From: a virus
Virus record (IMG/VR): IMGVR_UViG_3300031368_000001
Coordinates: 32,001 to 96,000 of that record
Direction: 5' to 3' (one strand)
Length of the DNA stretch: 64,000 nucleotides
The position numbers and the translations under genes are program-made. Numbering within the stretch: the stretch's first letter is position 1; each line of letters opens with the position of its first letter. The notes under the pieces were generated by a model. It saw only the letters and a program-made list of their open reading frames with translations, was not told the origin of the DNA and ran no database searches. Of this stretch, positions 13,212-51,807 are shown in pieces.

Positions 13212-14615
13212 ATGAACCAAGACATTCTTACTAAAATAACCACAGCCCAAAAAATTCTCATTCTCGATTATTCATTCTGGGGAAGTCTCGCTCTGCGTCT
13301 TACTCTAAAAGAGGACGAAACCTGTAAGACCGGTTGGACTGATGGAGTTACTCTTGGGTATAATCCACACTGGATCGAGACTCTCTCACACAAAGGAACC
13401 GTGGCCTGGTGCGCTCATGAAGTATGCCATCCAATGTGTCAGCATCATACAAGAAGAGCTGGAAGAAATCATAGGTTATGGCAAACGGCTGCTGATTATG
13501 TGGTTAACAGTATACTTGTAAAAGAAAAATTTGATTTACCCGGCCAGCCTCTCTACGATCCACGCTTCAATGGTATGAGTACAGATGAGGTATATAGTAT
13601 TTTAGAGAAAGAAATGGAGGAGGAAAGGGAAAATAGAAGGAAAGAAATCAATGAAAAAAATAAAAGTGAAAATAAAGGAGTTAAAGGAAATAACTTACCT
13701 GATAGCTCTACTGATCCTGGCAACGAGCCTATGGATGACAATTCAGATGATGGGAATGCTGGGAATGATAGAGACACCAACGATAATGGTAAAGATGATG
13801 AAAAGAATCAAAAAGACAGCGGAGGTGATTTAGGGAATAACGCCAATAAGAGCAAAGATGATCCTGATGATAACGATCCTGATAATAATGATCCTGATCC
13901 TGGCAACTGCGGAGAAGTAAGAGACTATCCAGGCAAGGATAATGACCCCTCCCCTTCTGACATGAAACAGCAAGAACAAGATTGGAAAATAGCAACTGTG
14001 CAAGCTGCAACACAAGCTAAACAACATGGCAACATGCCCGCAGGTCTCGATGCTGAAATTCAAAACATAGTAGAACCAAAAGTAGATCCGCGAGATTTAT
14101 TACAAAAATTTGTGGCCATGTCTGCTAAGAATGACTTCACGTGGTCCATGCCAAATAGAAAATATATTCCTCATGGATTATACCTACCCAGTATGAAGAG
14201 TGAAGAACTGGGAACTGTGGTTTTAGTTTTAGATACATCGATTAGTATCGGTCAGAAAGAACTGGATAATTTTTCAGCGATCGTCTCAGCTATTCTGGAA
14301 ACGTATATTATAGATGCGATTGTTCTTTACTGTGACACGAAAATATACGAACCTGAGTATTTCAAGAGAGAAGATTTACCCCTGAAACTAAAAATGAAAG
14401 GACGGGGTGGAACGAATTTTGCGCCACCTTTCTTGTTCGTAAAAGAACATGACATAGATCCGGTATGCCTGATTTATTTAACAGATCTTGAATGTAATGA
14501 CTATCCAGATTTTGAACCAAGTTATCCGGTGATGTGGATATGTACGGACCCACCGGAATATGTATATGATATACCACCATTCGGGGAAATAATATATATA
14601 GATTTAGAGAAGTGA
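13212..14615 (+). CDS. Metallopeptidase-like (DUF2201 N) + VWA domain protein
   Basis: TGWTDG, HEVCH (HExxH), D/N-rich linker, MIDAS DTSIS, GRGGTNF, YLTD; ATG at 13212 more likely than TTG at 13191. Confidence 0.9.
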   Translation: MNQDILTKITTAQKILILDYSFWGSLALRLTLKEDETCKTGWTDGVTLGYNPHWIETLSHKGTVAWCAHEVCHPMCQHHTRRAGRNHRLWQTAADYVVNSILVKEKFDLPGQPLYDPRFNGMSTDEVYSILEKEMEEERENRRKEINEKNKSENKGVKGNNLPDSSTDPGNEPMDDNSDDGNAGNDRDTNDNGKDDEKNQKDSGGDLGNNANKSKDDPDDNDPDNNDPDPGNCGEVRDYPGKDNDPSPSDMKQQEQDWKIATVQAATQAKQHGNMPAGLDAEIQNIVEPKVDPRDLLQKFVAMSAKNDFTWSMPNRKYIPHGLYLPSMKSEELGTVVLVLDTSISIGQKELDNFSAIVSAILETYIIDAIVLYCDTKIYEPEYFKREDLPLKLKMKGRGGTNFAPPFLFVKEHDIDPVCLIYLTDLECNDYPDFEPSYPVMWICTDPPEYVYDIPPFGEIIYIDLEK

Positions 14616-15159
14616 TGATGCCTAAATATAAAGTAGTTTTGTTGTCGCCAATGCTAACCTGGGAGAAAGTAGATGCTGAATCAACTGAAAAGGCTGAAGA
14701 AGAATGTTGGAATGATCCATGCCTTGATCGAATAGATTTGACAGACGGGCCATTTTATATGGCCGCAGAGGAAATTGAGGAGGATGAAATTGAGTAAACC
14801 TAATCTCCTTGTAGTTACCTTCTTATATCTTTACTTTGTTGTCCGCGCGTAACCTTTTTTTTAGAAATACTACCTAAAGAAAGAGAGAAAGAATAAATGA
14901 AAATAGCCATAGTTAGCTCAAAAGACCTTGGCCTCAACTGCTGGTCACCAAAAAGATTTCTTGGATCCTGTGATCAGTGTGATAAAGTAATGAAATGTAA
15001 ATTACCAGAAGCCCGAGCAGGGAGAATTAAGTTACTAAATGGTAAAATTACTGAAGCTCATAAAATAGTGAAAAAATTAGAAGAGCAGAGATTCCAGGAA
15101 GTGAAAGAAGGGTTGAGGGAAGAGAGTAAATTGTAATTTGTTTATATACAGATATTTTT

Positions 15160-15182
15160 CTGGTTAATACTGTGCGTTATAC
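15160..15182 (+). mobile_element. Right half of an attC site (L'-R')
   Basis: CTGGTTAA-TACTGTGC-GTTATAC. Confidence 0.6.
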
Positions 15183-15200
15183 GCAAAAGGAAACTTAAAT

Positions 15201-15392
15201 ATGAAATATATATATGCTGTACTCAGGGAGACAGGTGGAGCACACAAAAGTATGGACGTAATGAGCGTGTGGACAAACAAAAAACTCGCCCAGAAAGAGG
15301 CTAATAAATTGAATGTATTAGCATCGGAGGGCTATGAATGTGAAGTGCGTAGATGGATTGTAAATGAAACTGGTGATACAATTAACTGGTAG
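15201..15392 (+). CDS. Cassette 1 hypothetical protein
   Basis: Bounded by GTTATACGC (15176) and its exact reverse complement GCGTATAAC (15392). Confidence 0.75.
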   Translation: MKYIYAVLRETGGAHKSMDVMSVWTNKKLAQKEANKLNVLASEGYECEVRRWIVNETGDTINW

Positions 15393-15393
15393 C

Positions 15394-15452
15394 GTATAAC
15401 CATGCCCCTGAAGCCAACAGCAAATAGCTGCGGCTTACCGGCGGCGTTAGGA
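15394..15452 (+). mobile_element. attC site (59 bp)
   Basis: GTATAAC...T(G)AAGCC...GGCTTA...GTTAGGA; imperfect palindrome with extrahelical base. Confidence 0.8.
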
Positions 15453-15459
15453 GTCAACA

Positions 15460-15729
15460 ATGAGTGTTGTCACAGATATTATTTTGGTTACTGCTATTGA
15501 GGATGGCGCATATAGACCATCATTCGACTTAGTTAAAGTCGACCAATACGCAGGCGGAGGCAAGGCGGTACAGTGCGATGTGTTTATGTCAGCCGTTAAC
15601 TACTTGGTTTTAGAGGATTTACTTGATTGGTTCAAGTCTGTAAGATGGGAATATCCAGAACAGGTGCAACTTTTTGTTAAAGGCGAACACGACGACAAGT
15701 TTGCTGTGTACTGCCCTGAAAACTCCTAA
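15460..15729 (+). CDS. Cassette 2 hypothetical protein
   Basis: Bounded by GTTAGGAGT (15446) and ACTCCTAAC (15722); stop TAA lies inside R''. Confidence 0.8.
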   Translation: MSVVTDIILVTAIEDGAYRPSFDLVKVDQYAGGGKAVQCDVFMSAVNYLVLEDLLDWFKSVRWEYPEQVQLFVKGEHDDKFAVYCPENS

Positions 15730-15790
15730 CCAATCGTTCAACAACCGACCGCCGATACAGCCCTGTGGCGGGTTAACTCAAACGTTAGGT
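15724..15790 (+). mobile_element. attC site (67 bp)
   Basis: TCCTAAC-CAATCG-TT(C)AAC...CCGCC/GGCGG...GTTAA-CTCAAAC-GTTAGGT. Confidence 0.85.
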
Positions 15791-15954
15791 GGCAAGCATG
15801 AGAAAGCCTTTGACAGGGCATAGGCCATATCCGAGTGAAAGGATAGTACAGCCCATGGATAAGGCATCACACATGCAAGTCTGGTTGGCTATAACTATTA
15901 TTGGCAATTAGCATTGCTGGTAGTTTAGGCAGTTCGATTCTGCCATTGCCACCT
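15788..15954 (+). ncRNA. tRNA-like RNA with expanded D-arm region (cassette 3)
   Basis: GGTGGCAA/TTGCCACC terminal stem; T-arm GGCAG-TTCGATT-CTGCC (15928-15944); long hairpin before it; no + strand ORF in the track. Confidence 0.6.
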
Positions 15955-16012
15955 AATAAATCCCTGAACCAGACGCCATAAAGCTCGGCGCTGGTTAGCT
16001 CAAGCGTTAAGG
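15951..16012 (+). mobile_element. attC site (62 bp)
   Basis: ACCTAAT-AAATCC-CT(G)AACCAG(A)CGCC...GGCG-CTGGTTAG-CTCAAGC-GTTAAGG; two extrahelical bases at canonical positions. Confidence 0.85.
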
Positions 16013-16021
16013 AGGAAAAAA

Positions 16022-16180
16022 ATGAAAATGTCAGTAAAAGAGTTTGATTCATTGACAAAGAGAGATTTTGACAATGGAGCGGTTAGGGATGCTATTCGCA
16101 ATAGCTTAAAAGAGTGTGAAAAATTGCTTGCCTCCCAACAAGTCGTTGAAGCAGACCGCGCTAATCGCACGACTGATTAA
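16022..16180 (+). CDS. Cassette 4, 52-aa ORF reading into its attC
   Basis: SD AAGGAGG; MKMSVKEFDSLTKRDFDNGAVRDAIRNSLKECEKLLASQQVVEADRANRTTD*; below the ORF-track cutoff. Confidence 0.6.
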   Translation: MKMSVKEFDSLTKRDFDNGAVRDAIRNSLKECEKLLASQQVVEADRANRTTD

Positions 16181-16194
16181 CTCAGGCGTTATAA
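16133..16194 (+). mobile_element. attC site (62 bp)
   Basis: TCCCAAC-AAGTCG-TT(G)AAGCAG(A)...CTGATTAA-CTCAGGC-GTTATAA. Confidence 0.85.
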
Positions 16195-16207
16195 TTTAAG
16201 AGGAAAA

Positions 16208-16456
16208 ATGAAAGAAGAAAAAAAAATATGCGACATGATTTTAAGTACTGTTTCACGCTTCAATGATGCTCAAAGTATTGGGATTGAGGTTCTAGAGAAA
16301 TATAAGAACATGGATAAAGGCATAGTTCCAGAGTTGCAAGAAATCGCTTTTCATGTTCAGAGTTTAGCACGAGGCTGGCGTTCTCAGCAAGATCGGGCAG
16401 ATGAGTGTTATGAGAAATATGCTGCATATAAAAAATATTGCAATGAAAATCTATAA
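16208..16456 (+). CDS. Cassette 5 hypothetical protein (attC deleted after R'')
   Basis: Starts after GTTATA (16188); ends in CTATAAC (16451-16457). Confidence 0.7.
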   Translation: MKEEKKICDMILSTVSRFNDAQSIGIEVLEKYKNMDKGIVPELQEIAFHVQSLARGWRSQQDRADECYEKYAAYKKYCNENL

Positions 16457-16474
16457 CAATAAGGAGGAAAAACC

Positions 16475-16744
16475 ATGCCAGGAGTAATTAATTACACAAA
16501 GCTCCCAGAAAGTCTAAGAGGGGGAGCACAAAGATGGATAGAAAATGGAATAGTTCCAGGAAGTTTTCTCACAGCAGTGATCCGTAATGATCTAACAGAA
16601 AGCTTTGCACAAGCTGATTATATTAATATCACTAAATTACAAGATATTGTGCACTTCTTTTACTGGGAAGCTCCAAGCCAGTGCTGGGGCTCAAAGGAAA
16701 AGATGATTGCATGGGGGAAAAAATTTAATGAGATAAGACCATGA
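16475..16744 (+). CDS. Conserved phage hypothetical protein
   Basis: PGSFLTAVIRNDL...AD...APSQCWGS motif. Confidence 0.75.
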   Translation: MPGVINYTKLPESLRGGAQRWIENGIVPGSFLTAVIRNDLTESFAQADYINITKLQDIVHFFYWEAPSQCWGSKEKMIAWGKKFNEIRP

Positions 16745-17000
16745 ATATGAGAAGCGCTATGGCCAGCGCAAGAGCGAGAACTTTAAATGAAAAATTCCAT
16801 AAAAGTGCTGAAAACACTGTAAATAGATTACTAACAAGCCCCACACATTCAGCAAGAGTCTCTACAAAGTTAGCTAAACATATTTTGATACAACATGAAA
16901 CTCTCTTATATAATGGAATAGTATATTCTACTCACGTAAGAAATATAGGCGCTGGTGTAAAGGAATTATATTTAAAGGAATTTCATGAGGAGATAAGACC

Positions 17001-17345
17001 ATGACTGATAATGATGCCATGACCGACAATAACACCATCCGTGATGTAAACACCGTCCGTGATGTAAACACCGTCCGTGATGTAAACACCGTCCGTGATG
17101 TAATAAAATTTAAAGTACATGTGATAAGAACAGGCTGGGCAAGTTTGGATATTGCTATCGCTGCAAAAGATAAGGATAGTGCAAAAACAAAAATTATGGA
17201 TACTATTGGAGACTATGAATTCTCAGAATATGATGCTGAGTATGAAATAGAATCTATGGAGATAATACCATGACTGACAATACTATGACTGATAATACCA
17301 TGACCGATAATAATATGACTGATAATAACACCGTCCGTGATGTAA
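17001..17345 (+). repeat. 18-bp (NTVRDV) and 15-bp (MTDNT) coding tandem repeats shared by ORFs 17001-17273 and 17270-17497
   Basis: AACACCGTCCGTGATGTA x4; ATGACTGAYAATA units. Confidence 0.9.
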
Positions 17346-17506
17346 TGAAAGATCGTATCCGGGATCTGTTGGCTGGATATTTTAGGATAGATAATTTAGA
17401 TGTAGACGCTGATCTCGTAGCCAATATAGCTGATGAAGCTTTTTCGGTGACAGGGATAAGTGAGAAAGAACAGGATGAGGAGTGGAAAATTTTATAGAGG
17501 TTAGCT

Positions 17507-17577
17507 AATACAGGCAGTGATTATAAAGAGCCCCAAGAAGGAACCTGGTGTGGTTTTAATCATTGCCTGTATTTTTA
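17507..17577 (+). terminator. Long-stem hairpin, probable terminator
   Basis: AATACAGGCAGTGATTA/TAATCATTGCCTGTATT 17-bp stem followed by T residues. Confidence 0.6.
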
Positions 17578-18087
17578 TGTCTGGGTTTTCTCTTGTTCTA
17601 AGAGATCAAAAATGAAAAATAAAAGCCGGTCCTTTAGGAAATCCTTAATGGTTGTGAGAAAAAGTAGCTGTGAGAAAAAAAAAGAAAATATCATGAATAC
17701 TTACATAGGCACTTACCAGGATATGATAGAAAGAACTGTAGAGCTGATCCTTGCCGCGGCAGAAAAAATTCATAATAAAGATGCTATAAGTCGGATTTAC
17801 ACGGCCAACAGAGAGGTTGACACAAAAATTGGCAATATTATGGAGAATATCAGAAAGAAGAAGAGATCATGACTAAACAGGAAAAGCGTAAGTACTGCAT
17901 CGGCTGTAGAGACAATTTCTACAACGGCAATAATCCATATGGCATTAAGGAATGCTGGAATCTTAAAGATGCAAAATTCGTGAAAAGAAAAAAGATTCCT
18001 ATAGATTTGAGCCCACCTTATGATCATATAAAAAAACAGAAAGTTTTGAGCTGCTATGGCCAAAAGGGGTATGTATATTGGTAGTTA

Positions 18088-18182
18088 GGTGGTAAATGCT
18101 GCTTATAAGCAGAGGGTCAGCTTGTATCTGACGTTTGATAGTAAACAAAACTATCATGCAGGGTTAAATCTGTATACCACCT
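18088..18182 (+). ncRNA. Non-canonical tRNA-like cloverleaf, anticodon TGT, long variable arm (cassette)
   Basis: Acceptor GGTGGTA/TACCACC; D-arm CTGCT-TATA-AGCAG; anticodon arm GTCAG-CTTGTAT-CTGAC; variable arm TGATAGT/ACTATCA; T-arm TGCAG-GGTTAAAT-CTGTA. Confidence 0.65.
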
Positions 18183-18236
18183 AACCAACCCACTAAGCTC
18201 GATAGCTAAAATTGCTGGTTAATTCAAGCGTTAGAT
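18179..18236 (+). mobile_element. attC site (58 bp, degenerate L'')
   Basis: ACCTAAC...CTGGTTAA-TTCAAGC-GTTAGAT; right arm nearly identical to that of attC 15951-16012. Confidence 0.7.
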
Positions 18237-18253
18237 TCATCAAGGAGGTAAAC

Positions 18254-18451
18254 ATGGAAATAGACGAAATTATAAATAACTTGGGCAAAAAAATATCAAC
18301 TCCAAAAGGAAATCAATTATTAGCTGGTTTTCAAATTGCAGTGTTAATGGAAAACAATAAATTAAAAGCATATCCTCAATCAATATCATTAATCTGTTGG
18401 TCAGATAATGGTGGAAAATATATGCATTGGGCAATTGATTGTAAAAAATAA
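18254..18451 (+). CDS. Cassette hypothetical protein
   Basis: SD AAGGAGG then ATG at 18254; stop inside R''-like AAATAAC. Confidence 0.65.
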   Translation: MEIDEIINNLGKKISTPKGNQLLAGFQIAVLMENNKLKAYPQSISLICWSDNGGKYMHWAIDCKK

Positions 18452-18506
18452 CAAGCCGGTTGAGTCTAACGCTCATAAACTCGCGTGTCTTACCTCACCA
18501 TTATAC
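18446..18506 (+). mobile_element. Degenerate attC (crossover G>A)
   Basis: AAATAAC-AAGCCG-GTTGAG...CTTAC-CTCACC-ATTATAC. Confidence 0.5.
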
Positions 18507-18662
18507 ATCCTAATAGCGTCTTAACGAAAGGAAAATACCATGAAAGTAGACCTAATAGCTATTGGCTATGAATGGATCTGTCTGAAGTGTGGACATCTTA
18601 ATAATGAGTTCGAGATATTAAAAGAAGTTACCTGCGTAGAATGCGGTGAGATTTATGAAGTA

Positions 18663-18750
18663 GGTGAGACAGAACATGCGTGTGGGTGAGACAGAACATG
18701 CGTGTGGGTGAGGCAGAACATGCTTATAGGTGAGACAGAACATACTTATA
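18663..18750 (+). repeat. 22-bp tandem repeat x4
   Basis: GGTGAGACAGAACATGCGTGTG and variants; duplicates the 3' end of a Zn-ribbon ORF (18540-18689). Confidence 0.9.
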
Positions 18751-19229
18751 GATAAAAAAGCAAAATAGAGGAGGTGAGTATACATGAATAACACAATTTT
18801 CATATCGATAAAGGGCGGAGTTATCCAGAGTATCAATGTTACGGATGACCTGGATAGTATAAAAGCTGTGGTTATTGATTTTGATGTTCAAGGAATAGAG
18901 GATTCAACGCTCAATCTTGTGGATGGTCAGTGGGCAGTAATTTTTAATTACGGAGTAGAAAAAATAGCGGACGGAGATGTGGAGCATTTTGAGGGGATAG
19001 TGAAGAAGGGGACTAAGGGATGATTTTTTAGTAATGACAGCTAGATTTACTTGGATACTGTTTTTTGAGAAACTGTTTTCTTTGAAGATTTTCTATGTCG
19101 CTTCTTTTTATAATTCTCCAGACTTCTGATAAAATCCGGGTCAAAGTAAAGTGGTTTCTTTTTAGGCAGTAAATTCTTACCAAAGTCTCCAAAGTTAGTC
19201 ATTATAATTTTTCCCTATAACTCTTCCTT

Positions 19230-19990
19230 CTTTTTTAGCTTAAATTATATCATATTTATCAACTAAAAGCTAATATTATTTTAGACATATAGAAAAAATG
19301 TGGAAAATAGTAAAAATAAATAAGAACTTAGGAAAACACAGCAATTTAAAGCAATTTAAAGCATTTCAAAGCAATCCATCAGATCGGATATTTGGGGCCA
19401 TCAAAAATCAACAAAAATTTTTATTAATGATTCTATATACTTATATTAAAAATGATGGGGATGATTTTTTCTGATTCTTAAAAATCTCTGCAAAATTTTT
19501 CCTGGATAATCACGGAAAATAGCAAAAAGGTTTTTTGGGTAGTAACACTATCTTATTTAGAGTACCCGGTAAGTACCTGAAATTACTCAAAGAGTAACGG
19601 CAGAAAACCTTGGTGTTACTGGCCTAAGGGGTTGAAATAACTAAAAAAAACCCCTATATGGTAACGGGTACACCTGTTTTGAAAACTTTTTCTTGGAATT
19701 TTTAGCGTACCAGAAAAGTTTTATTTTTTATAATTCAGCCGTTACTGTTACCGGGGACGTCTAGCATTTAGTACTCTAAGTTATTGAAATGACTGAAGAA
19801 AAAAGGTTACAAACAGCGAAAACAGCGATTTTTTGAAAAGCTGAGAGCTACGTGATTTCAGGTACTTACGTCAACTAGTTAATAGTAACGTTTAACTATT
19901 TCTGGAGTACCTGTTTCAATGATTTCAGGTACTTAGCAGTACACGGCTGATTTTCTGCCGTTACTGTGTAAGTTATACTGTAAGTGTTGT
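19230..19990. other. Putative replication origin
   Basis: ~750 bp without an ORF, close to the 3' end of the primase gene; AT-rich block, AGCAATTTAAA-like x3, ATTTCAGGTACTTA x3 (one inverted), many GTAAC/GTTAC iterons. Confidence 0.6.
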
Positions 19991-44343: not shown

Positions 44344-45225
44344 CTATCCCTGAATTCCCGTTTCTATCTCCTCTGTAAAGTTCTTAACTAATTTAGCCTT
44401 CCCCCAGACTTTCTCTTCATTTGCTTTAAACCTTCCCAAAAGTAAATTTGAATAAGAAATAAATCTGTTTCTTCCTTCTGACTGCCACCAGGCTTCTGGA
44501 TAATTTCCTTCTTGATGTTTTTTATGATCTGAAGTTCCTCTACTGAAATTTCCACCTTTTTGAAATGACATCATAGTAAAGCCTAACTCCCAAGCTCGGT
44601 TCATCAAATCCACGTCATCTGAGCCATAGTGACGTAAATCTTCGTTGTATCCACCAAGCAGATCAATAAACTCTTTTTTGTAATACCCCTGTCTTCCTCG
44701 TAATAACTGTCTACTCTTTGCAAATATAACTTTCTCAGATAATTGATTAGCAAGCTTATTGATATAAATAACGAAACCTCTATTGGTAAATCCATCGGCA
44801 TCTACATTATTCACAATATCTCCAGAGGCAGCCTGAAAAGCAATATTCCGTGAGTGACCCATTTCAAAGTATTTGGGTTCGTCTGTCCTGATAAAAACAA
44901 GAATGCCTTTCTCAATGTATTCCATCATCTCTGATTTAATCCAGCCACCAATATCATCTATTTTACTTCCGTAGTCTATTACCACAAACTCCACATTGGG
45001 ATACTCGAGATTATCTTTGATATTCTGAGGAAGAGTCACTTTAAGATCTTTAAGTCTATCCATACAAGTTGTACAGATAGAAATTTTATAGTTCTTTGTA
45101 ACCGGATTAGAATACTTCCCATCCCAAAATTTCATCTTTGGTAATCTGGCGCCACCCCAGGCAAATTCAAGTGGTCTGGCTAAAACCTTAAAATCGATTT
45201 CGCATTCAGGATATTTTCTCGACAT
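44344..45225 (-). CDS. Glycosyltransferase family 2
   Basis: ISICTTCMDR, VVIDYGS, NVDAD, GGYNEDLRHYGSDD. Confidence 0.88.
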   Translation of the reverse strand: MSRKYPECEIDFKVLARPLEFAWGGARLPKMKFWDGKYSNPVTKNYKISICTTCMDRLKDLKVTLPQNIKDNLEYPNVEFVVIDYGSKIDDIGGWIKSEMMEYIEKGILVFIRTDEPKYFEMGHSRNIAFQAASGDIVNNVDADGFTNRGFVIYINKLANQLSEKVIFAKSRQLLRGRQGYYKKEFIDLLGGYNEDLRHYGSDDVDLMNRAWELGFTMMSFQKGGNFSRGTSDHKKHQEGNYPEAWWQSEGRNRFISYSNLLLGRFKANEEKVWGKAKLVKNFTEEIETGIQG

Positions 45226-45244
45226 GGTTCCTCCTTACTTTTAG

Positions 45245-45817
45245 TTAATTCTTTCTCATCACTAACAGTGAGCCTTTAAACCACTTTCTCTCAGCAGCCT
45301 TCCTTAAAAACTTTGTCTTTTTTCTCTCAAGCCTGAATCCTCTTTTAATAAATTCAGCTATTACATACTCATTTGGCTGTTCGTTAAAATGTCCTGTTCC
45401 TCCCTGTCCTGGGATTCCCCAGCTCAATATCAAATTACTTTTAGCAAATTCAGAGACATTGTTAATAAAGACTTGTTCGTATTTTTTTGGGATGTGTTCA
45501 CCGACTTCGAGGGAGATTACGAGATCGTAATAAATTTCTACCCATCTCCTTTTGGTAAGATCAAGAGTCATAATATCATTATAGACAGCAATTTCTTGAA
45601 TATTTGGTGTGCCTTCATAGCCATGGACTATTGGAATACCTTTTTCCTTCAGATATTTGCAGTAGTCTCCTTTGCCGCACCCAAGATCTGCAACTGATTT
45701 AACAGATTTGTACATTGTAGCTATGTATTTTGCTAATTCTGGATCATATCTATGTCGTTTTTTTGCGGTCTCTAAATTCCAAATTCCGGTTTCAGCACAA
45801 ATTGAGTTCTTTTTCAT
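45245..45817 (-). CDS. Class I SAM methyltransferase
   Basis: VADLGCGKG, SLEVGEHIP, PGQGGTGHFNEQ. Confidence 0.9.
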   Translation of the reverse strand: MKKNSICAETGIWNLETAKKRHRYDPELAKYIATMYKSVKSVADLGCGKGDYCKYLKEKGIPIVHGYEGTPNIQEIAVYNDIMTLDLTKRRWVEIYYDLVISLEVGEHIPKKYEQVFINNVSEFAKSNLILSWGIPGQGGTGHFNEQPNEYVIAEFIKRGFRLERKKTKFLRKAAERKWFKGSLLVMRKN

Positions 45818-45905
45818 ATTGCTTTTTACCCATTATAAATATCCTATTCCAACCGCTAATTTTTTTCACCGCCCAACAAAAACTTATACCTCTTTTCATA
45901 TCTCA

Positions 45906-46565
45906 TCATTTCTTTCTTATACAATAATGTCCATATCCCCCATCCATATTATAAGTATGGAAAGATATAATATGATTATTAAAAATTTTTTTTATCCAAT
46001 TATCATAATCGCTAAAACTTAACCAATCATCAAATGGGGTTTTTTGGGACTTGAAATGAATTTCCATACCAATATGCTGGGCATTTATCACTATTTCCTC
46101 TGACTTTTTATCCCCGATAATATACTTTTCTCCGCCCTCACAATCAAGTTTAATAAGATACCTATCACTTAATTTACAATTATATTTTTCAAATAAAGAT
46201 ATTAAAGAAATAGATTCAACACTATAAGAATCTCCTTCACGCTTTGGCACGAACATGGAATCAAGAATATGCCCTCTGCTTAAAAGAAAAAATCTTTCGC
46301 CATTTCCTAAAGCCTTTTCTTCAAGTTCAATATTTAACATATTAATATTTTGTCTAAGATAATTACACACTTCTATACTAGGTTCAACAGCTACAATTCT
46401 AGTATATGGATGCTTCATTCTCATATAGACAGAAAAAAATCCTATATTTGCTCCTATATCAAATATAATATCAAAATAATTACTTTGATATTCTTTGACC
46501 CCATACAGATCCTTTGCAACTATATGTTTAAATTCATTTCCTTGGTTTTTATAATTACTTATCAT
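45906..46565 (-). CDS. FkbM-family methyltransferase
   Basis: FDIGANIGFFS, AVEP, IKLDCEGGE. Confidence 0.9.
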   Translation of the reverse strand: MISNYKNQGNEFKHIVAKDLYGVKEYQSNYFDIIFDIGANIGFFSVYMRMKHPYTRIVAVEPSIEVCNYLRQNINMLNIELEEKALGNGERFFLLSRGHILDSMFVPKREGDSYSVESISLISLFEKYNCKLSDRYLIKLDCEGGEKYIIGDKKSEEIVINAQHIGMEIHFKSQKTPFDDWLSFSDYDNWIKKIFNNHIISFHTYNMDGGYGHYCIRKK

Positions 46566-47293
46566 TTTAGATGCTCCTCTATAAGGATTTTATTCAAATA
46601 AGTATACCCATTCGAACTCTGTGGTTGGCAATTATTTCTCTTATAACAAACTTCTAAAACCCTTGGATGTTTCATCGCCTCAGCGAGAGCAAAACAAAGC
46701 GATTGATTTCCAATAAAAAGTTTTGATCCCTTTATAGCTTGTGCGATCTCAAAAGCATCACGGCATTGATACCATTGTACAGAAAGCATCTTAGAAAATT
46801 CTTTATACTCCCATTTATTACCAATAAAAGCTACAACTTCCTGATAAGGTTCTAACAATTTCCAATCTATCTCTTCTTTATCATGATGTCGTAAAGTCCT
46901 ATTAACAATTATAGATGTTATTGAATTAGATACTACTTCCGAAATCCATGATTGAGATAAGTCAAACTCAAGACCAAAAATATCCAAATGGTACTGTGCT
47001 AGATGTCTAACTCTTCCTGCTAAATGTCCCATCTTTTCCAGATGACGATATCTATCTAAATTACTTACTTTTTTGCCATCAGGAAGAACGACATTTTCAG
47101 CTCTACCATATTGCCACCTAGTACGAATAGAAGGAAATACATCAGAAATATACGGTTGTCGAGTTAAAAGATCTCTTAATATCTCAGAATGATCGGATTT
47201 CAAATACAATCCTCCGCCTCCTAGAGTTATAATAGCAGGAAGTGAATAAATAATGTCTCCTAATGAACCACTGTGCCAAAACTCTAATTCCAT
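46562..47293 (-). CDS. GT9 (heptosyltransferase)-like protein
   Basis: HSGSLGDIIYSLP; LFIGNQS...AEAM. Confidence 0.75.
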   Translation of the reverse strand: MELEFWHSGSLGDIIYSLPAIITLGGGGLYLKSDHSEILRDLLTRQPYISDVFPSIRTRWQYGRAENVVLPDGKKVSNLDRYRHLEKMGHLAGRVRHLAQYHLDIFGLEFDLSQSWISEVVSNSITSIIVNRTLRHHDKEEIDWKLLEPYQEVVAFIGNKWEYKEFSKMLSVQWYQCRDAFEIAQAIKGSKLFIGNQSLCFALAEAMKHPRVLEVCYKRNNCQPQSSNGYTYLNKILIEEHLK

Positions 47294-47300
47294 AAAATAT

Positions 47301-47445
47301 TTATACCCTTTTCATCCAGACCGTTTCTTCTAATAACTCTATGTTAGTCTGTCCAAAAACATCATTTACAGCTCTTTCGATATCTGGATACTTCTTATTT
47401 CCATAATCATGACCGCAAAGTATGCATCTCACTAATATATTTCAT
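47301..47445 (-). pseudogene. Internally deleted Methyltransf_24 paralog
   Basis: SD+ATG out of frame with C-terminal ILCGHDYGNKKYPDIERAVNDVFG...VWMKRV*. Confidence 0.75.
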
Positions 47446-47472
47446 ATTTCTCCTATCCAATTATAACTTAAT

Positions 47473-48036
47473 CTAAACCCCATTCAATCTTTTAACCCAA
47501 ACTGATCCAGGGTGTATGACCTCAATATTATCTCTGCCATAAATTTCATCAACTGCTTTTATCACTTCTTTTTCACGAGAAGCATAATCATGTCCACACA
47601 TAATTCCACCCTTTTTCACTAAAGGTTCCCATGTTAATATATCTCGTTTAACACTTTCATAGTCATGCTCTGCGTCTATAAAAACAAGATCAAAATATTT
47701 TTCATTAACATATTTTTTATAATGATAAAAAAGTTTCGATGCCTCAACAGAAGTCATTCTAATTATTTTAAGTTGTGGAAAAAAACACACATATCTATAA
47801 ACATTCCAAGCTTCTTTATCAAAAAAATTCTGGTCTCTGCCTCCGATCCTATTGCACTCCGAATCTCTTGCATGCTTAGTACTCCAAGGATCTACCGCCC
47901 AATATTCTTTAATTATATTAGAACAATTTGATCTTAGTATTTCCCTTGTAGTTCTTCCACGTCCTACACCAATTTCAGCTACACGTTCCGCTTGTTGTTC
48001 CTTAATAAGATCTATCAGTATATTAGCTCGCCCCAT
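47473..48036 (-). CDS. Methyltransf_24-type SAM methyltransferase
   Basis: AEIGVGRG, AVDPW, FDLVFIDAEHDY, CGHDY. Confidence 0.9.
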   Translation of the reverse strand: MGRANILIDLIKEQQAERVAEIGVGRGRTTREILRSNCSNIIKEYWAVDPWSTKHARDSECNRIGGRDQNFFDKEAWNVYRYVCFFPQLKIIRMTSVEASKLFYHYKKYVNEKYFDLVFIDAEHDYESVKRDILTWEPLVKKGGIMCGHDYASREKEVIKAVDEIYGRDNIEVIHPGSVWVKRLNGV

Positions 48037-48048
48037 TATTCCATCTCC

Positions 48049-48270
48049 TTACATTCTTTTCATCCATACAGTACTTTTTAATAACTCTATATTATCCGCA
48101 CCAAAAATTTCATCAACAGTTTTTTTAATCCCAGGAAATCTTTTATTACCATAGTCATGTCCTGTTAACAAACCATCTTTTTTAACCAAAGTTTTCCATG
48201 AATAAATATCTTCTTTAACAGCATCATAAAAATGATCCGAATCTATAAATACTAAATCAAAATATTCTTT
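48049..48270 (-). pseudogene. Headless Methyltransf_24 paralog (C-terminal half)
   Basis: KEYFDLVFIDSDHFYDAVKEDI...TGHDYG...VWMKRM*; no in-frame start; overlaps the end of the upstream GT gene. Confidence 0.8.
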
Positions 48271-49184
48271 GCACTTAATTCTCCTTCCACTATTTCTGTA
48301 AATTCTTTGACTCTTTGTTCAGTGCTGTGATATTTTCTAACAAATTCCATCCCGTTTTTTGCAATTCCTTCTCTTTCATTTTCATTTTTAAGAAAATATT
48401 TTATTTTGTCTTCCAAATCACTAAAATCATTTTTATAAAGAACTAAATGCTCCCCATCTTTGTAACCAAGTCTTTCAAGGTCATCCGGTCTAGTTGTTAA
48501 TAGAAAGGTTCCACAAGCCATTACTTCAGTATACTTACCGCTTAATTCATTATCCTCAGCGTTATATGTCACAAAAATTTTCGATTCATTAATTTTTCTA
48601 ACATATTCTTCAAACCAAACTTTTTCAAAAAAACTGTTTACATCCATTTCATGAATTATTTTTTTTAACTTTTTACGATTCGCAGCCTTATAACTTATTT
48701 GAAACGACGCCATAACATCAATGTTTTTCTCAATATAAAGTTTATGATGTTTATTAATATCAACAGACCACGGCAAAATATAATACTTACTACCTATACC
48801 ACGACTTTCCAAACTTCTCATTTGTGCTTTATATCTAGGAATTATAATATCATAACCAACTTTATTTAAATGACTGTCATAAATTTCAAAAGATTTTTCA
48901 TTATAATCACCGCCAAAAATATGCACCTTTAAAACATTTTCCACATCCTCAAGCCCAGGCGATAAAGACTTATCTCTAAATTCATAATGCGTTAACACAA
49001 CATCTGTGTCTGGATACATAGTTAGAACATCCGGTACTGTTAATCTAGAATTATATCCCTCGTATCCAACACCAAAAAATATAACATCTTGTTGTCTAGC
49101 TAATTCTCTTCGAAACAATTCATGTTGCCAATTTCCTTTTTTTTTCCGCCCCATACGATTCCATGCTACAAGCAATATTTTCAT
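48252..49184 (-). CDS. Glycosyltransferase (GT-B, CgeB-like)
   Basis: LPWSVD, KYTEVMACGTFLLT, DGEHLVLY, IAKNG. Confidence 0.85.
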   Translation of the reverse strand: MKILLVAWNRMGRKKKGNWQHELFRRELARQQDVIFFGVGYEGYNSRLTVPDVLTMYPDTDVVLTHYEFRDKSLSPGLEDVENVLKVHIFGGDYNEKSFEIYDSHLNKVGYDIIIPRYKAQMRSLESRGIGSKYYILPWSVDINKHHKLYIEKNIDVMASFQISYKAANRKKLKKIIHEMDVNSFFEKVWFEEYVRKINESKIFVTYNAEDNELSGKYTEVMACGTFLLTTRPDDLERLGYKDGEHLVLYKNDFSDLEDKIKYFLKNENEREGIAKNGMEFVRKYHSTEQRVKEFTEIVEGELSAKNILI

Positions 49185-49199
49185 AATTTTTCAATCTCT

Positions 49200-49769
49200 T
49201 TATAATTCTTTAATCCATACACTATCACGTGCTTTTATTATTCCATCAAAACATTCTGTTATTGCTTTTACAACACCAGGATGATGTTTATTACGATCAT
49301 GTCCCATTATTAATCCGCCTTCTTTAATCAACGGCGACCAAGTTTTAATATTAGCCATTACAGATTCGTATTTATGATCAGCGTCTATAAATACTATATC
49401 AAAATATTTTTCAGGAAATAATCTAGCTGCTTCAAGAGAAGACATTCTTACAACACAAAGCTGAGGATACCAACGCATAAATTTACATGCGTAAGCATAT
49501 AACTCATCCCATTTCTCCATTGGTACATCTACATATGATGAATGATTACTAGGTTGCCAAAAATCTATTGCCCAATATTGCGATATAATATCACCACAAT
49601 CTTCTAAAACTCGTTTCATATTCGTAGAATCCCAAATACCTATTTCAGCTATTTTTAAATCTTTTCTATTAAAACTTTTCAAGAGGGCTGGTATTATATC
49701 CCAACGCCACCTAGTATTTTCTATAATCTTTAATATTTCTTCTTTAGTTCGCATCATCTTCTTCAACAT
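49200..49769 (-). CDS. Methyltransf_24-type SAM methyltransferase
   Basis: AEIGIW, FDIVFIDADHKY, GHD. Confidence 0.9.
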   Translation of the reverse strand: MLKKMMRTKEEILKIIENTRWRWDIIPALLKSFNRKDLKIAEIGIWDSTNMKRVLEDCGDIISQYWAIDFWQPSNHSSYVDVPMEKWDELYAYACKFMRWYPQLCVVRMSSLEAARLFPEKYFDIVFIDADHKYESVMANIKTWSPLIKEGGLIMGHDRNKHHPGVVKAITECFDGIIKARDSVWIKEL

Positions 49770-50446
49770 CCTCCATACTGTCCTAACTCAACAGCTATTT
49801 CATTAAATTCATTTAACGATGGAAAATCATTGTCTTTGACTTTTAATATAGTCACATATGTAAAATTCTTTCTCCCTGGTATATTACTAGGCCAATATTT
49901 CTGTGTCATTTCCCTCACATCGACTATTTTGTATTTACAAAGTCTAGAAAGTTTTGTATAGAAAGCATGAGTATAATGAAATAGTCCATGATGTTTAGCA
50001 GGATTCCCGCCACTATATCTATCTGAAGGATTAGATCGTATTATAATACCACCAACTTTACATAAATTATGTATATTCTTGTTTAATTCATATTGATTTT
50101 CTACATGTTCAGCTGTACCAAAATCGATTATAAAATCAAATTTACCTATCTTAGATGTAATAGGTTTAGCTAAATCGTATCGTAATATAGTCTTTTTAGT
50201 GCGCTTTTCTGATTTTACAATGTCTTCATTTCCTATGCCTAAATCTATAACACTGACTTCAAAACCTTTACTCTCAAAATACTGACTAGCCAAACGATGA
50301 GGCATATAATTATGTAGATCTAACCTAATCCATAAATCACCAAACTCGCACAATCTTAAACCATCAAAACTTCCAATGTATTCTTTATGTTTTAACCAAT
50401 CAGTAATTTCTTCAAAATATTTTATATCTTTGAAATGTAGTCCCAC
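49763..50446 (-). CDS. SAM methyltransferase
   Basis: CEFGD, FDFIIDFGTAEHV, KVGG. Confidence 0.8.
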   Translation of the reverse strand: MGLHFKDIKYFEEITDWLKHKEYIGSFDGLRLCEFGDLWIRLDLHNYMPHRLASQYFESKGFEVSVIDLGIGNEDIVKSEKRTKKTILRYDLAKPITSKIGKFDFIIDFGTAEHVENQYELNKNIHNLCKVGGIIIRSNPSDRYSGGNPAKHHGLFHYTHAFYTKLSRLCKYKIVDVREMTQKYWPSNIPGRKNFTYVTILKVKDNDFPSLNEFNEIAVELGQYGGC

Positions 50447-51087
50447 TAAATTTCCTCGGTAGATAATATTGTTAATTTCTTAATAATATGGTTTTTAGCA
50501 TGCCCTATCAATGCTACTCTAAGCTCTTTTTCTTCCTCTATAAGTTCCTTGCATCCTAAATCTATGAATTTCTTAGCCCAATATTCTCTAGTTTTTCCAG
50601 CATTAAGGTGCATATAACTAAAACTATACGCTGCGGTAAGTACTATTAGCCTAGAAGAAGCATTAATCATATTTGCAACAAAGATGTCTTCTTCTTCTGG
50701 CAACAGATGCTCTGCAGCTTCTATAGAAAGAGCGCAATCCCATTTTCCATAATCAAGTTTTCTACCAATATGTCCTTTCTTAACAAATCCACGTACACGC
50801 TTCGGAATACACTCTCTTGCAATATCGGCTCCTATATCTATGCCTAACACTTTTTTAGTTTTCGCTTCAAGAGCACCTTCAATATACGACCCTAACCCGC
50901 AACCAAAATCAATTATAGATTCCAGATTAAGCATATCAGATAAAATTTTACCTGATCTCATTTCCCAATCCCTCATTTTTATTCTTTTACAACAGTAATG
51001 TTTACTATAAATATTTAACGGGTTTTCTTTATATAATTCCTGCACAGCAGGAATATCTTTTTTCCATCTTTCTTCAGTCCATCCCAT
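50446..51087 (-). CDS. SAM methyltransferase
   Basis: IDFGCGLG, SIEAAEHL. Confidence 0.85.
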   Translation of the reverse strand: MGWTEERWKKDIPAVQELYKENPLNIYSKHYCCKRIKMRDWEMRSGKILSDMLNLESIIDFGCGLGSYIEGALEAKTKKVLGIDIGADIARECIPKRVRGFVKKGHIGRKLDYGKWDCALSIEAAEHLLPEEEDIFVANMINASSRLIVLTAAYSFSYMHLNAGKTREYWAKKFIDLGCKELIEEEKELRVALIGHAKNHIIKKLTILSTEEI

Positions 51088-51090
51088 CTA

Positions 51091-51636
51091 TTAAAGCCTC
51101 CCTATTTTTTTTACCCATACACTTGCGTCTAATAGTTCTATATTATCCGAGCCGAAAATTTCATCTACCGCTTGCTTAACACCAATTTTCTTACCGCCAT
51201 AATCATGTCCTGTCAGTAATCCTTCATACCCAACTAGCGGAAGCCAAGCTGTAATATCATTCAAAACAGATTCGTATTTATGATCAGCATCTATAAAAAC
51301 CAAATCGAAATATTTTTCAGGAAATAATCTAGCTGCTTCAAGAGAAGACATTCGTAAAATATGTAATTGTGGAAACCAGCGCATCAGTCTACATGCTTTA
51401 AGATAACACGCATCCCAGAATTCGTGTGTACGAGATCTATAATTCCAATGGCTAGTAAATTCCCAAAAATCGATTGCCCAATATTGAGAAATAATATCTT
51501 TACATGTGCTTAAAACTCGTTTCGTAGTACTTGATTTCCAAATTCCTATCTCTGCGATTATCAAATCTTTTTTATTAAACTCTTTCAAAAGATCTATCAA
51601 AACTTCTGCTTGATTCTTATATTCTTTTTTTTCCAT
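51091..51636 (-). CDS. Methyltransf_24-type SAM methyltransferase
   Basis: AEIGIWK, FDLVFIDADHKY, TGHDYG. Confidence 0.9.
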   Translation of the reverse strand: MEKKEYKNQAEVLIDLLKEFNKKDLIIAEIGIWKSSTTKRVLSTCKDIISQYWAIDFWEFTSHWNYRSRTHEFWDACYLKACRLMRWFPQLHILRMSSLEAARLFPEKYFDLVFIDADHKYESVLNDITAWLPLVGYEGLLTGHDYGGKKIGVKQAVDEIFGSDNIELLDASVWVKKIGRL

Positions 51637-51807
51637 TTTACATCCTCACCACAAAAATGTTACAAAAGAAAGGTTTTTATTTCTTTCAGGGTCAAATATT
51701 TCACTACATCTCATTATAAGCTCTATTTGGATCCATCTTCATTACCATAGTTAGTCCACAATTCATAGCTGTACTTCCAATAAAATCCTCAGAGCCCGTT
51801 ACTAAGA

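Follow-up and report, generated by a model that had tools for sequence, protein, structure and literature searches.

Clusters of attC sites lacking an integron integrase (CALINs) have been reported in both virulent and temperate phages, and those of virulent phages were shown to recombine with IntI1 (Qi, Rajabal, Ghaly, Tetu, Gillings 2023, PMC9892861). Such phage arrays consist of small cassettes in the same orientation, exhibit imperfect palindromes of ~60-70 bp with RYYYAAC and GTTRRRY boxes, and occur in phages having no integrase of their own (PMC9892861). Integron cassettes devoid of a gene have been described as well; they commonly carry sense promoters—most of those tested from the superintegrons of Vibrio act in this way (10.1101/2023.11.21.568050; PMC6557892)—and these promoters are not recognisable in silico (10.1101/2023.11.21.568050). 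The present analysis concerns a unit of 102 nt, covering the bases 18084-18185 of a 64,000-nt stretch (hereafter the window) of the virus record IMGVR_UViG_3300031368_000001, for which a preliminary description had proposed a non-coding cassette encoding a tRNA-like cloverleaf. The unit is one more member of both documented kinds, the phage CALINs and the gene-less cassettes (PMC9892861; PMC6557892; 10.1101/2023.11.21.568050). It very probably represents the cargo plus the ends of a small gene-less attC cassette, whereas the complete explanation—a gene-less CALIN cassette whose closing stem is formed by the cassette ends and whose hairpins are possibly a relic of a tRNA—is favoured with modest confidence.

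The virus record, 108 kb long, 77% complete and originating from salt-marsh metagenomes, carries phage genes, i.e. those for a portal, a primase, a helicase and an HNH protein, and the possibility of an integron residing in a bacterium was therefore rejected. Since no match to a tyrosine recombinase/integrase (PF00589) was found in the 108-kb record, the array has to be regarded as a CALIN and not as a complete integron. About ten copies of a ~60-bp site ending with GGTTARCTCARGCGTTA are present in the record, four of them on the plus strand at 15.4-18.2 kb and six on the minus strand near the record's end. In IMG/VR, the same right-hand 17-mer recurs in other viral contigs, in about a dozen sites with the full attC layout, which is ..CTAAC, CTCAAC..GAC, a variable hairpin and then GGTTAGCTCARGCGTTAG. 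Concerning the unit, the attC-type site of its cassette (18175-18236, plus strand), ending with GGTTAATTCAAGC-GTTAGAT, possesses both boxes—R'' ACCTAAC at 18179-18185, which fits RYYYAAC, and R' GTTAGAT at 18230-18236—with the presumed crossover at G18230/T18231. The bottom-strand folds of the neighbouring sites contain L-box stems with bulged bases, these being clear at 15949-16014 and at positions 1183-1256 of another viral contig, L044 (IMGVR_UViG_3300031864_000003). The previously proposed non-coding cassette bounded by integron-type sites is thus supported. The attC sites gave no significant match in a BLAST search against plasmid integrons, the sites being too short for significance.

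The locus shares with the phage CALINs described so far (PMC9892861) the orientation and small size of the cassettes, the type of the sites and the lack of a phage integrase. It differs from them by offering direct population evidence of cassette swapping at GTT, and by one cassette without any gene that is situated behind a conserved phage gene with no attC upstream. It should also be mentioned that two arrays of the record (15140-16460 in the window and, on the minus strand, G000:C1:103100-105900) share the head motif GGTTAATACTGTGCGTTA, which also starts the arrays in the viral contigs L044, L128 and L131; in bacterial genomes, the motif yielded six matches in unrelated contexts, fewer than chance predicts, and revealed no host or integrase partner.

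The two ends of the unit, GTTAGGTGGTA and TACCACCTAAC, are perfect 11-bp complements, as could be verified in the sequence. The 5' strand of this closing stem, which is the 5' end of the cassette (G|TTAGGTGGTA, 18084-18094, plus strand), pairs with the bases 18175-18185 of the same strand; the latter contain the R'' box of the unit's own attC, so that the R boxes do build the outer part of the stem, as had been proposed. In the intact cassettes, the bases following G|TT are perfectly complementary to the R'' box of the respective cassette, over 9, 9, 9, 9, 9 and 10 nt; the corresponding complement covers 11 nt in the unit and 12 nt—counting a terminal G-T—in E2, a cassette with the near-identical ends GTTAGGTGGCA...TGCCACCTAAT (15784-15957, plus strand). 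Because every intact cassette in the arrays possesses such an end complement, the "acceptor stem" of the unit is no evidence of tRNA identity; it is the generic complement between the cassette 5' end and R'', and it measures 11 bp. The stems of the unit and E2 (GGTGGTA/TACCACC and GGTGGCA/TGCCACC, respectively) differ in a single base pair, the difference being compensatory, which says nothing on whether selection acts at the level of DNA or RNA. The 11-bp repeat is not rare by chance either: perfect 11-bp inverted repeats with a gap of up to 120 nt occur once in the window in comparison with a mean of 4.8 in block-wise single-base shuffles of it, and the significance consequently rests on the context and the whole fold.

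With regard to mobility, the contigs of four other salt-marsh runs were compared with the region 15100-19100. These contigs cease to follow the reference immediately behind GTT or GTTA at 15178/9, 15448/9 and 16009, and beyond these break points they run into other sequences consisting of a ribosome site plus a gene. In a variant allele found in two runs, the position 18083 is joined to 18513 with 13 other bases in between, 18084-18512 being gone. The left break of this allele is the first base of the unit, and the unit is absent together with the following one-gene cassette, the 65-aa open reading frame (ORF) of which (18254-18451, plus strand) belongs to no Pfam family, and the decayed attC of which (18463-18506, plus strand) has GAGTCTAAC as its R'' and ATTATAC where GTT... 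would be expected. The metagenome contigs thus point to an exchange of cassettes at the GTT crossover that is going on in a phage array within a natural population. A related observation was made for the second array, where the 72-aa cassette ORF (G000:C1:105315-105524) is 93% identical to that at L128:6800-7018, the phage contig L128 sharing no other detected gene with this phage in the 10-kb locus fetched; this would be consistent with cassette exchange between phages.

On its upstream side, the unit directly follows a 71-aa Cys-rich phage gene (17869-18084, plus strand, according to the ORF list), the final base of its stop codon TAG being the G of the unit's GTT. Homologues of this gene were retrieved from ~95 phage or metagenome contigs, the unit being present downstream only in the 96%-identical metagenome contig L047. 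Since no attC precedes the unit, the G of GTT is a base of the stop codon and the other relatives of the 71-aa gene are without the unit, the sequence comparison suggests insertion at a secondary site behind that gene. As a separate observation, a standard tRNA-His gene is located directly after the homologue of the 71-aa gene in a distant relative (L011:3230-3305), so that RNA genes occupy this position in another phage, too.

The perfect terminal inverted repeats and the presence varying between strains might also be expected from an element that acts at the DNA level and is unrelated to integrons, for example a miniature inverted-repeat element, a site of replication or packaging, or a promoter/stem-loop shuffling module of the T4 type, and repeated intergenic sites could in principle be regulatory. 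The unit is, however, found in a single copy in the record, it has the ends GTT...AAC like every cassette here and adjoins an attC-type site, the divergence points fall on the GTT triplet, and, as judged by eye in the flanking sequence, attC-type sites are missing next to the match in the other viral contigs that share the arm pattern; an element of this kind is therefore highly improbable. The promoter early stem-loop elements (PeSLs) of T4-type phages are likewise intergenic elements that recur within a hyperplastic region occupied by small early genes, and they promote gene shuffling. Nevertheless, they are composed of a promoter and terminator-like hairpins and recombine by homology, whereas the sites studied here are characterised by R and L boxes, by end complements specific to each cassette and by breakpoints located at GTT.

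In the preferred explanation, the cassette would be a 149-bp, gene-less one of the integron type (18085-18230, through the G of the downstream GTT), placed in an integrase-less attC array within the accessory region of a salt-marsh phage. In the excised single-stranded circle, the 5' end of the cassette and its own R'' would form the R-box duplex bound by the integron integrase; the enzyme would have to come in trans from the host, the recombination step itself being a presumed one. At the RNA level, the plus strand of the unit would be co-transcribed with the flanking small genes and would fold into a stable five-way junction. Several points speak against the cassette part of this explanation. 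The bottom-strand fold of the unit's own attC is weak (-5.2 kcal/mol, z -0.8), the attC calls are based on the box layout and the bottom-strand folds, and an integrase is missing from the record. The shorter side of the joint in the variant allele comprises 30 matching bases and was found at 85% likeness, so that the joint is moderately reliable. Finally, in the lack of an attC upstream of 18084, the cassette needs the secondary site behind the conserved phage gene.

The minimum free energy (MFE) fold of the plus strand consists of the 11-bp closing stem round four hairpins with almost no linker and has an energy of -38.4 kcal/mol (z -5.8), none of 200 shuffles folding as well. For the minus strand, the value is -34.1 kcal/mol, the weaker fold being caused by two G-U pairs of the last hairpin that become A-C mismatches there. 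Taken as a 102-nt window, the unit belongs to the lowest 0.07% of the sampled windows of the record by folding energy; the inner 80 nt without the closing stem lie at the 2.3rd percentile of the sampled windows (z -2.6). The predicted fold of the unit is thus real, but the closing stem carries most of its strength.

The four hairpins, all on the plus strand and with coordinates from the MFE fold, were compared with a covariance-type model of the cassette L044:1056-1191 with a cloverleaf structure (hereafter the T1 model). The first one (18099-18112), the "D arm", has 5 bp and the loop UAUA without GG, and falls on the D arm of the T1 model; the second one (18113-18135), the "anticodon arm", has 2+5 bp with the 7-nt loop CUUGUAU and is found at the anticodon-arm position of the model. 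The third hairpin (18136-18156), the "variable arm", with 7 bp and a 7-nt loop, aligns to the variable arm of the model, while the fourth one (18157-18174), the "T-like arm", with 6 bp including two G-U pairs and the loop GUUAAA without TTC, corresponds to its T arm. The cloverleaf-like order with a long variable arm was accordingly predicted by the MFE fold in the way the preliminary description had it, including the 5-bp D-like stem with a 4-nt loop, the CUUGUAU loop on a 5-bp stem and the 7-bp variable arm; the D-loop GG, the TTC and the CCA are absent from the unit sequence, also as claimed. In this predicted structure, the inner hairpins are ordered and spaced as in a class II tRNA, i.e. 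one with a long variable arm.

The unit had further been said to contain no ORF. Two frames do exist in it—one of 31 codons starting with GTG (18089-18184) without a ribosome-binding site, and one of 11 codons from the ATG at 18096 with AGGTGG only 3 nt ahead—and that statement does not hold literally; neither frame, however, has support as a gene. The short ATG frame and the layout GTTAGGTGG-TAA-ATG, which mirrors the starts of coding cassettes, e.g. GTTAGGAGTCAACAATG at 15446, might point to a remnant of a protein-coding cassette that has lost most of its gene, with the hairpins being incidental. The modest percentile reached by the inner 80 nt and the visible decay of the neighbouring attC sites would be in favour of such an origin. 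It is, however, rather improbable in view of the four near-contiguous hairpins with their z of -2.6, their one-by-one match to the cloverleaf of L044 and the full conservation of the unit in L047.

The unit could also be a regulatory gene-less cassette, supplying either a promoter or a signal for RNA processing or stability, by which the expression of the following 65-aa gene would be set. By analogy, the sense promoters common in gene-less cassettes (10.1101/2023.11.21.568050; PMC6557892) argue for this, together with the presence or absence of the unit and the next ORF as a pair and a weak promoter-like match CTGACG-18-TATCAT at 18128-18157. That match, however, reaches 9/12, the number of such sites equals the shuffle expectation, and no terminator-like T run is seen; a regulatory cassette, the promoter of which would not be recognisable in silico (10.1101/2023.11.21.568050), is considered unlikely. 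Like the gene-less integron cassettes in question (PMC6557892; 10.1101/2023.11.21.568050), the unit comprises an attC without a credible ORF and lies upstream of a cassette it could influence; in contrast to them, it is far shorter, with a cargo of 80 nt, consists mainly of four hairpins, shows no convincing promoter motif, and is located in a phage and not in a chromosomal superintegron.

As far as the tRNA identity is concerned, ARAGORN in its default mode called no tRNA in the window, and on the unit itself the mode relaxed to 50% as well as the intron and mitochondrial modes—the relaxed check proposed earlier—delivered only unrelated, poor folds. Rfam over the whole window at the gathering score gave no match, and at E 10 in the region 17900-18400 it gave no match to tRNA, tRNA-Sec (RF01852) or tmRNA. 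Over the whole record, RF00005 at E 10 found nothing besides one tRNA-Pro outside the window. This tRNA-Pro (UGG; G000:C1:97369-97443, minus strand, 61 bits) is the only standard tRNA of the record and is situated ~6 kb from the second cassette array.

The comparison with class II tRNAs (Leu/Ser/Tyr), tRNA-Sec and allo-tRNAs leads in the same direction. The unit shares with them a five-way junction consisting of a closing stem, three arms and a long extra arm, and its 7-nt loop CUUGUAU on a 5-bp stem has the expected U33-like and purine-37-like bases; this loop is one short motif and is of little weight alone. Unlike those tRNAs, the unit is below every model threshold, it has no encoded CCA, and it lacks the elbow nucleotides G18G19 and T54-Psi55-C56, the respective loops reading UAUA and GUUAAA. 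Its connectors AAUG (4 nt) and AGG (3 nt) deviate from the tRNA standard of 2 and 1, and its closing stem of 11 bp from the 7-bp tRNA acceptor. The suggested likeness to tRNA-Sec and allo-tRNAs finds no support either: the combination of stem and T stem is 11/6 (or 7/6) instead of 7/5, 8/5, 9/4, 8/4 or 9/3, the D stem has 5 bp and not 6, and RF01852 found no match at E 10. The unit has lost, or never had, the nucleotides of the D and T loops making the tRNA elbow; judging from the sequence, it is for this reason most likely neither charged nor decoded, and its role would be at most that of a passive structured spacer or a processing signal in an early transcript.

The preliminary description had gone further, seeing in the unit a functional tRNA-like RNA that, excised from the early transcript and matured, would serve as a decoy of anticodon nucleases, a ligand of a synthetase or T-box, or an odd, mis-charging acceptor. 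The cloverleaf order, the 7-nt loop having U as its second and A as its sixth base, the plus strand being favoured both in the folds and by the T1-model score, and the truly tRNA-like sister cassette in L044 would agree with such an RNA, as would the identity of the copy in L047. The missing model matches at E 10, the elbow that cannot form with a 4-nt D loop without GG and a T loop GUUAAA, the connectors and the stem accounted for by the cassette ends, however, make it quite improbable, and the individual roles found no support in the sequence analysis. Covariation, on which such an RNA might be judged, has no diverged copies to rest on, the sole other copy of the unit—in L047—being identical in 102 of 102 positions. 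The surrounding 700 nt of L047 differ by 26 substitutions (~3.7%), five of them clustered in the right half of the attC; at this flank rate, zero changes in 102 nt have a chance of ~2%, so that the identity hints only weakly at constraint or recent transfer. No RNA run was found among the sequencing runs that contain the stretch.

The search for further relatives was mostly negative. No homologue of the unit was found among phage isolates, nor in IMG/VR by both arms; among the relatives of the 71-aa gene in IMG/VR and metagenomes, only L047 has the unit, and relatives of the HNH gene included no close one. A model of the unit detected no further copy over the record. Scans for the arm pattern at three gap ranges yielded L044 as the only true relative. 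Of the other candidates, L134 is placed in an attC array and was rejected as carrying a coding frame on the other strand, and L135-L140 were dismissed because their matches are not accompanied by attC-type sites in the flanking sequence, as judged by eye.

L044 is a 50-kb viral contig, the array of which begins with the same head motif as the arrays of this phage. Its second cassette, L044-T1 (L044:1056-1191, arms GTTATGTGGCAG/CTGCCACATAAC), is gene-less and carries a recognisable tRNA-derived gene, the acceptor stem of which is directly continuous with the R'/R'' boxes. On the Rfam tRNA model (threshold 29), the cargo reaches 33.5 bits, and it is called a tRNA by ARAGORN at default stringency when introns are permitted. 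Its D arm is of the Leu type, its T arm is canonical and its discriminator is A, and a 66-nt stretch replaces the anticodon arm; over the first 30 nt, it is similar to annotated tRNA-Leu genes of phages, with weak E-values (0.1-0.4). The link to tRNA made in the preliminary description is in this respect borne out, although by a cassette with near-identical ends in another phage. L044-T1 and the unit are alike in 10 of 12 arm bases, in being gene-less cassettes of arrays with the same head motif, in the order of the hairpins and in being reciprocal best model matches; they are unlike in that L044-T1 passes the Rfam threshold and has the Leu-type D arm and canonical T arm, neither of which is seen in the unit. 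A model built on the unit found L044-T1 as the only non-self match in 477 kb (E 0.029). Conversely, the T1 model identified the unit as its best match in 14500-19500 (22.0 bits, E 1.8e-4), aligning it end to end with the four hairpins placed successively on the D, anticodon, variable and T arms; with default filters over the whole window, this model gave no match, the unit being matched only with the filters off on 5 kb.

E2, the cassette of this phage with near-identical ends, shares 10 of 11 arm bases with the unit. It is 174 nt long, with a 12-bp closing stem and four internal helices, and its canonical T arm GGCAG-UUCGAUU-CUGCC adjoins the 3' strand of the closing stem. Neither Rfam (including E 10) nor ARAGORN made a tRNA call in E2, and no homologue was found for its frame of 37-40 codons behind AGGTGG.

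Agreement in the ends, in the place within an array of the same kind and in the order of hairpins, together with the resemblance of the last stem to the T stem of E2, provides the grounds for regarding the hairpins of the unit as decayed remains of a class II tRNA-derived cassette like L044-T1, a reading for which the chances are about evenly balanced. Arguments to the contrary concern both comparisons. Most of the model score between the unit and L044 comes from the shared arms, the minus strand of the unit still obtains 15.9 bits with the T1 model, and the model E-values given above are rough by the tool's own statement. E2 reaches only 5.3 bits on that model, and the sequence similarity between the interiors of the unit and E2 is not above that of shuffles. 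The full conservation of the unit in L047, moreover, could mean selection on the RNA, contrary to a relic. As a further reading, the phage arrays might circulate tRNA-derived non-coding cassettes—L044-T1, E2 and the unit—with the acceptor stem co-opted as an extended R-box duplex and the unit still being a working tRNA-shaped RNA. One helix would then serve both recombination (as DNA) and RNA folding, and the unit would be, e.g., a processing signal or decoy and not a relic; this is considered improbable.

In full-text literature searches, integron cassettes with a tRNA or a tRNA-like RNA as their cargo were not encountered. Both the tRNA-derived cassette L044-T1 and the possible decaying lineage appear to be undescribed, based on one clear example and two doubtful ones. 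If L044-T1, E2 and the unit do form a lineage, a structured RNA gene would be decaying inside a cassette with the part belonging to the recombination stem being kept. The question of whether tRNA-like RNAs are exchanged between phages in the form of cassettes could then be put to a concrete case.

Some variability was also observed elsewhere in the window. A 49-aa zinc-ribbon-like ORF has four 22-nt tandem repeats at its 3' end (18660-18765); in contigs from three runs, 87 nt are skipped there (18667 to 18755) and 20 other bases are present, which means that the repeat number varies in the population. The region 16989-17362 contains 15-nt and 18-nt in-frame tandem repeats in the adjacent small ORFs 17001-17273 and 17270-17497, and contigs in other runs skip 273-340 nt within it. 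On the minus strand at 45200-51700, there is a run of paralogous ORFs of ~180-310 aa representing an expanded gene family, the copies of which share DNA segments with 66-80% identity (repeat families D1, D2, D4 and D5).

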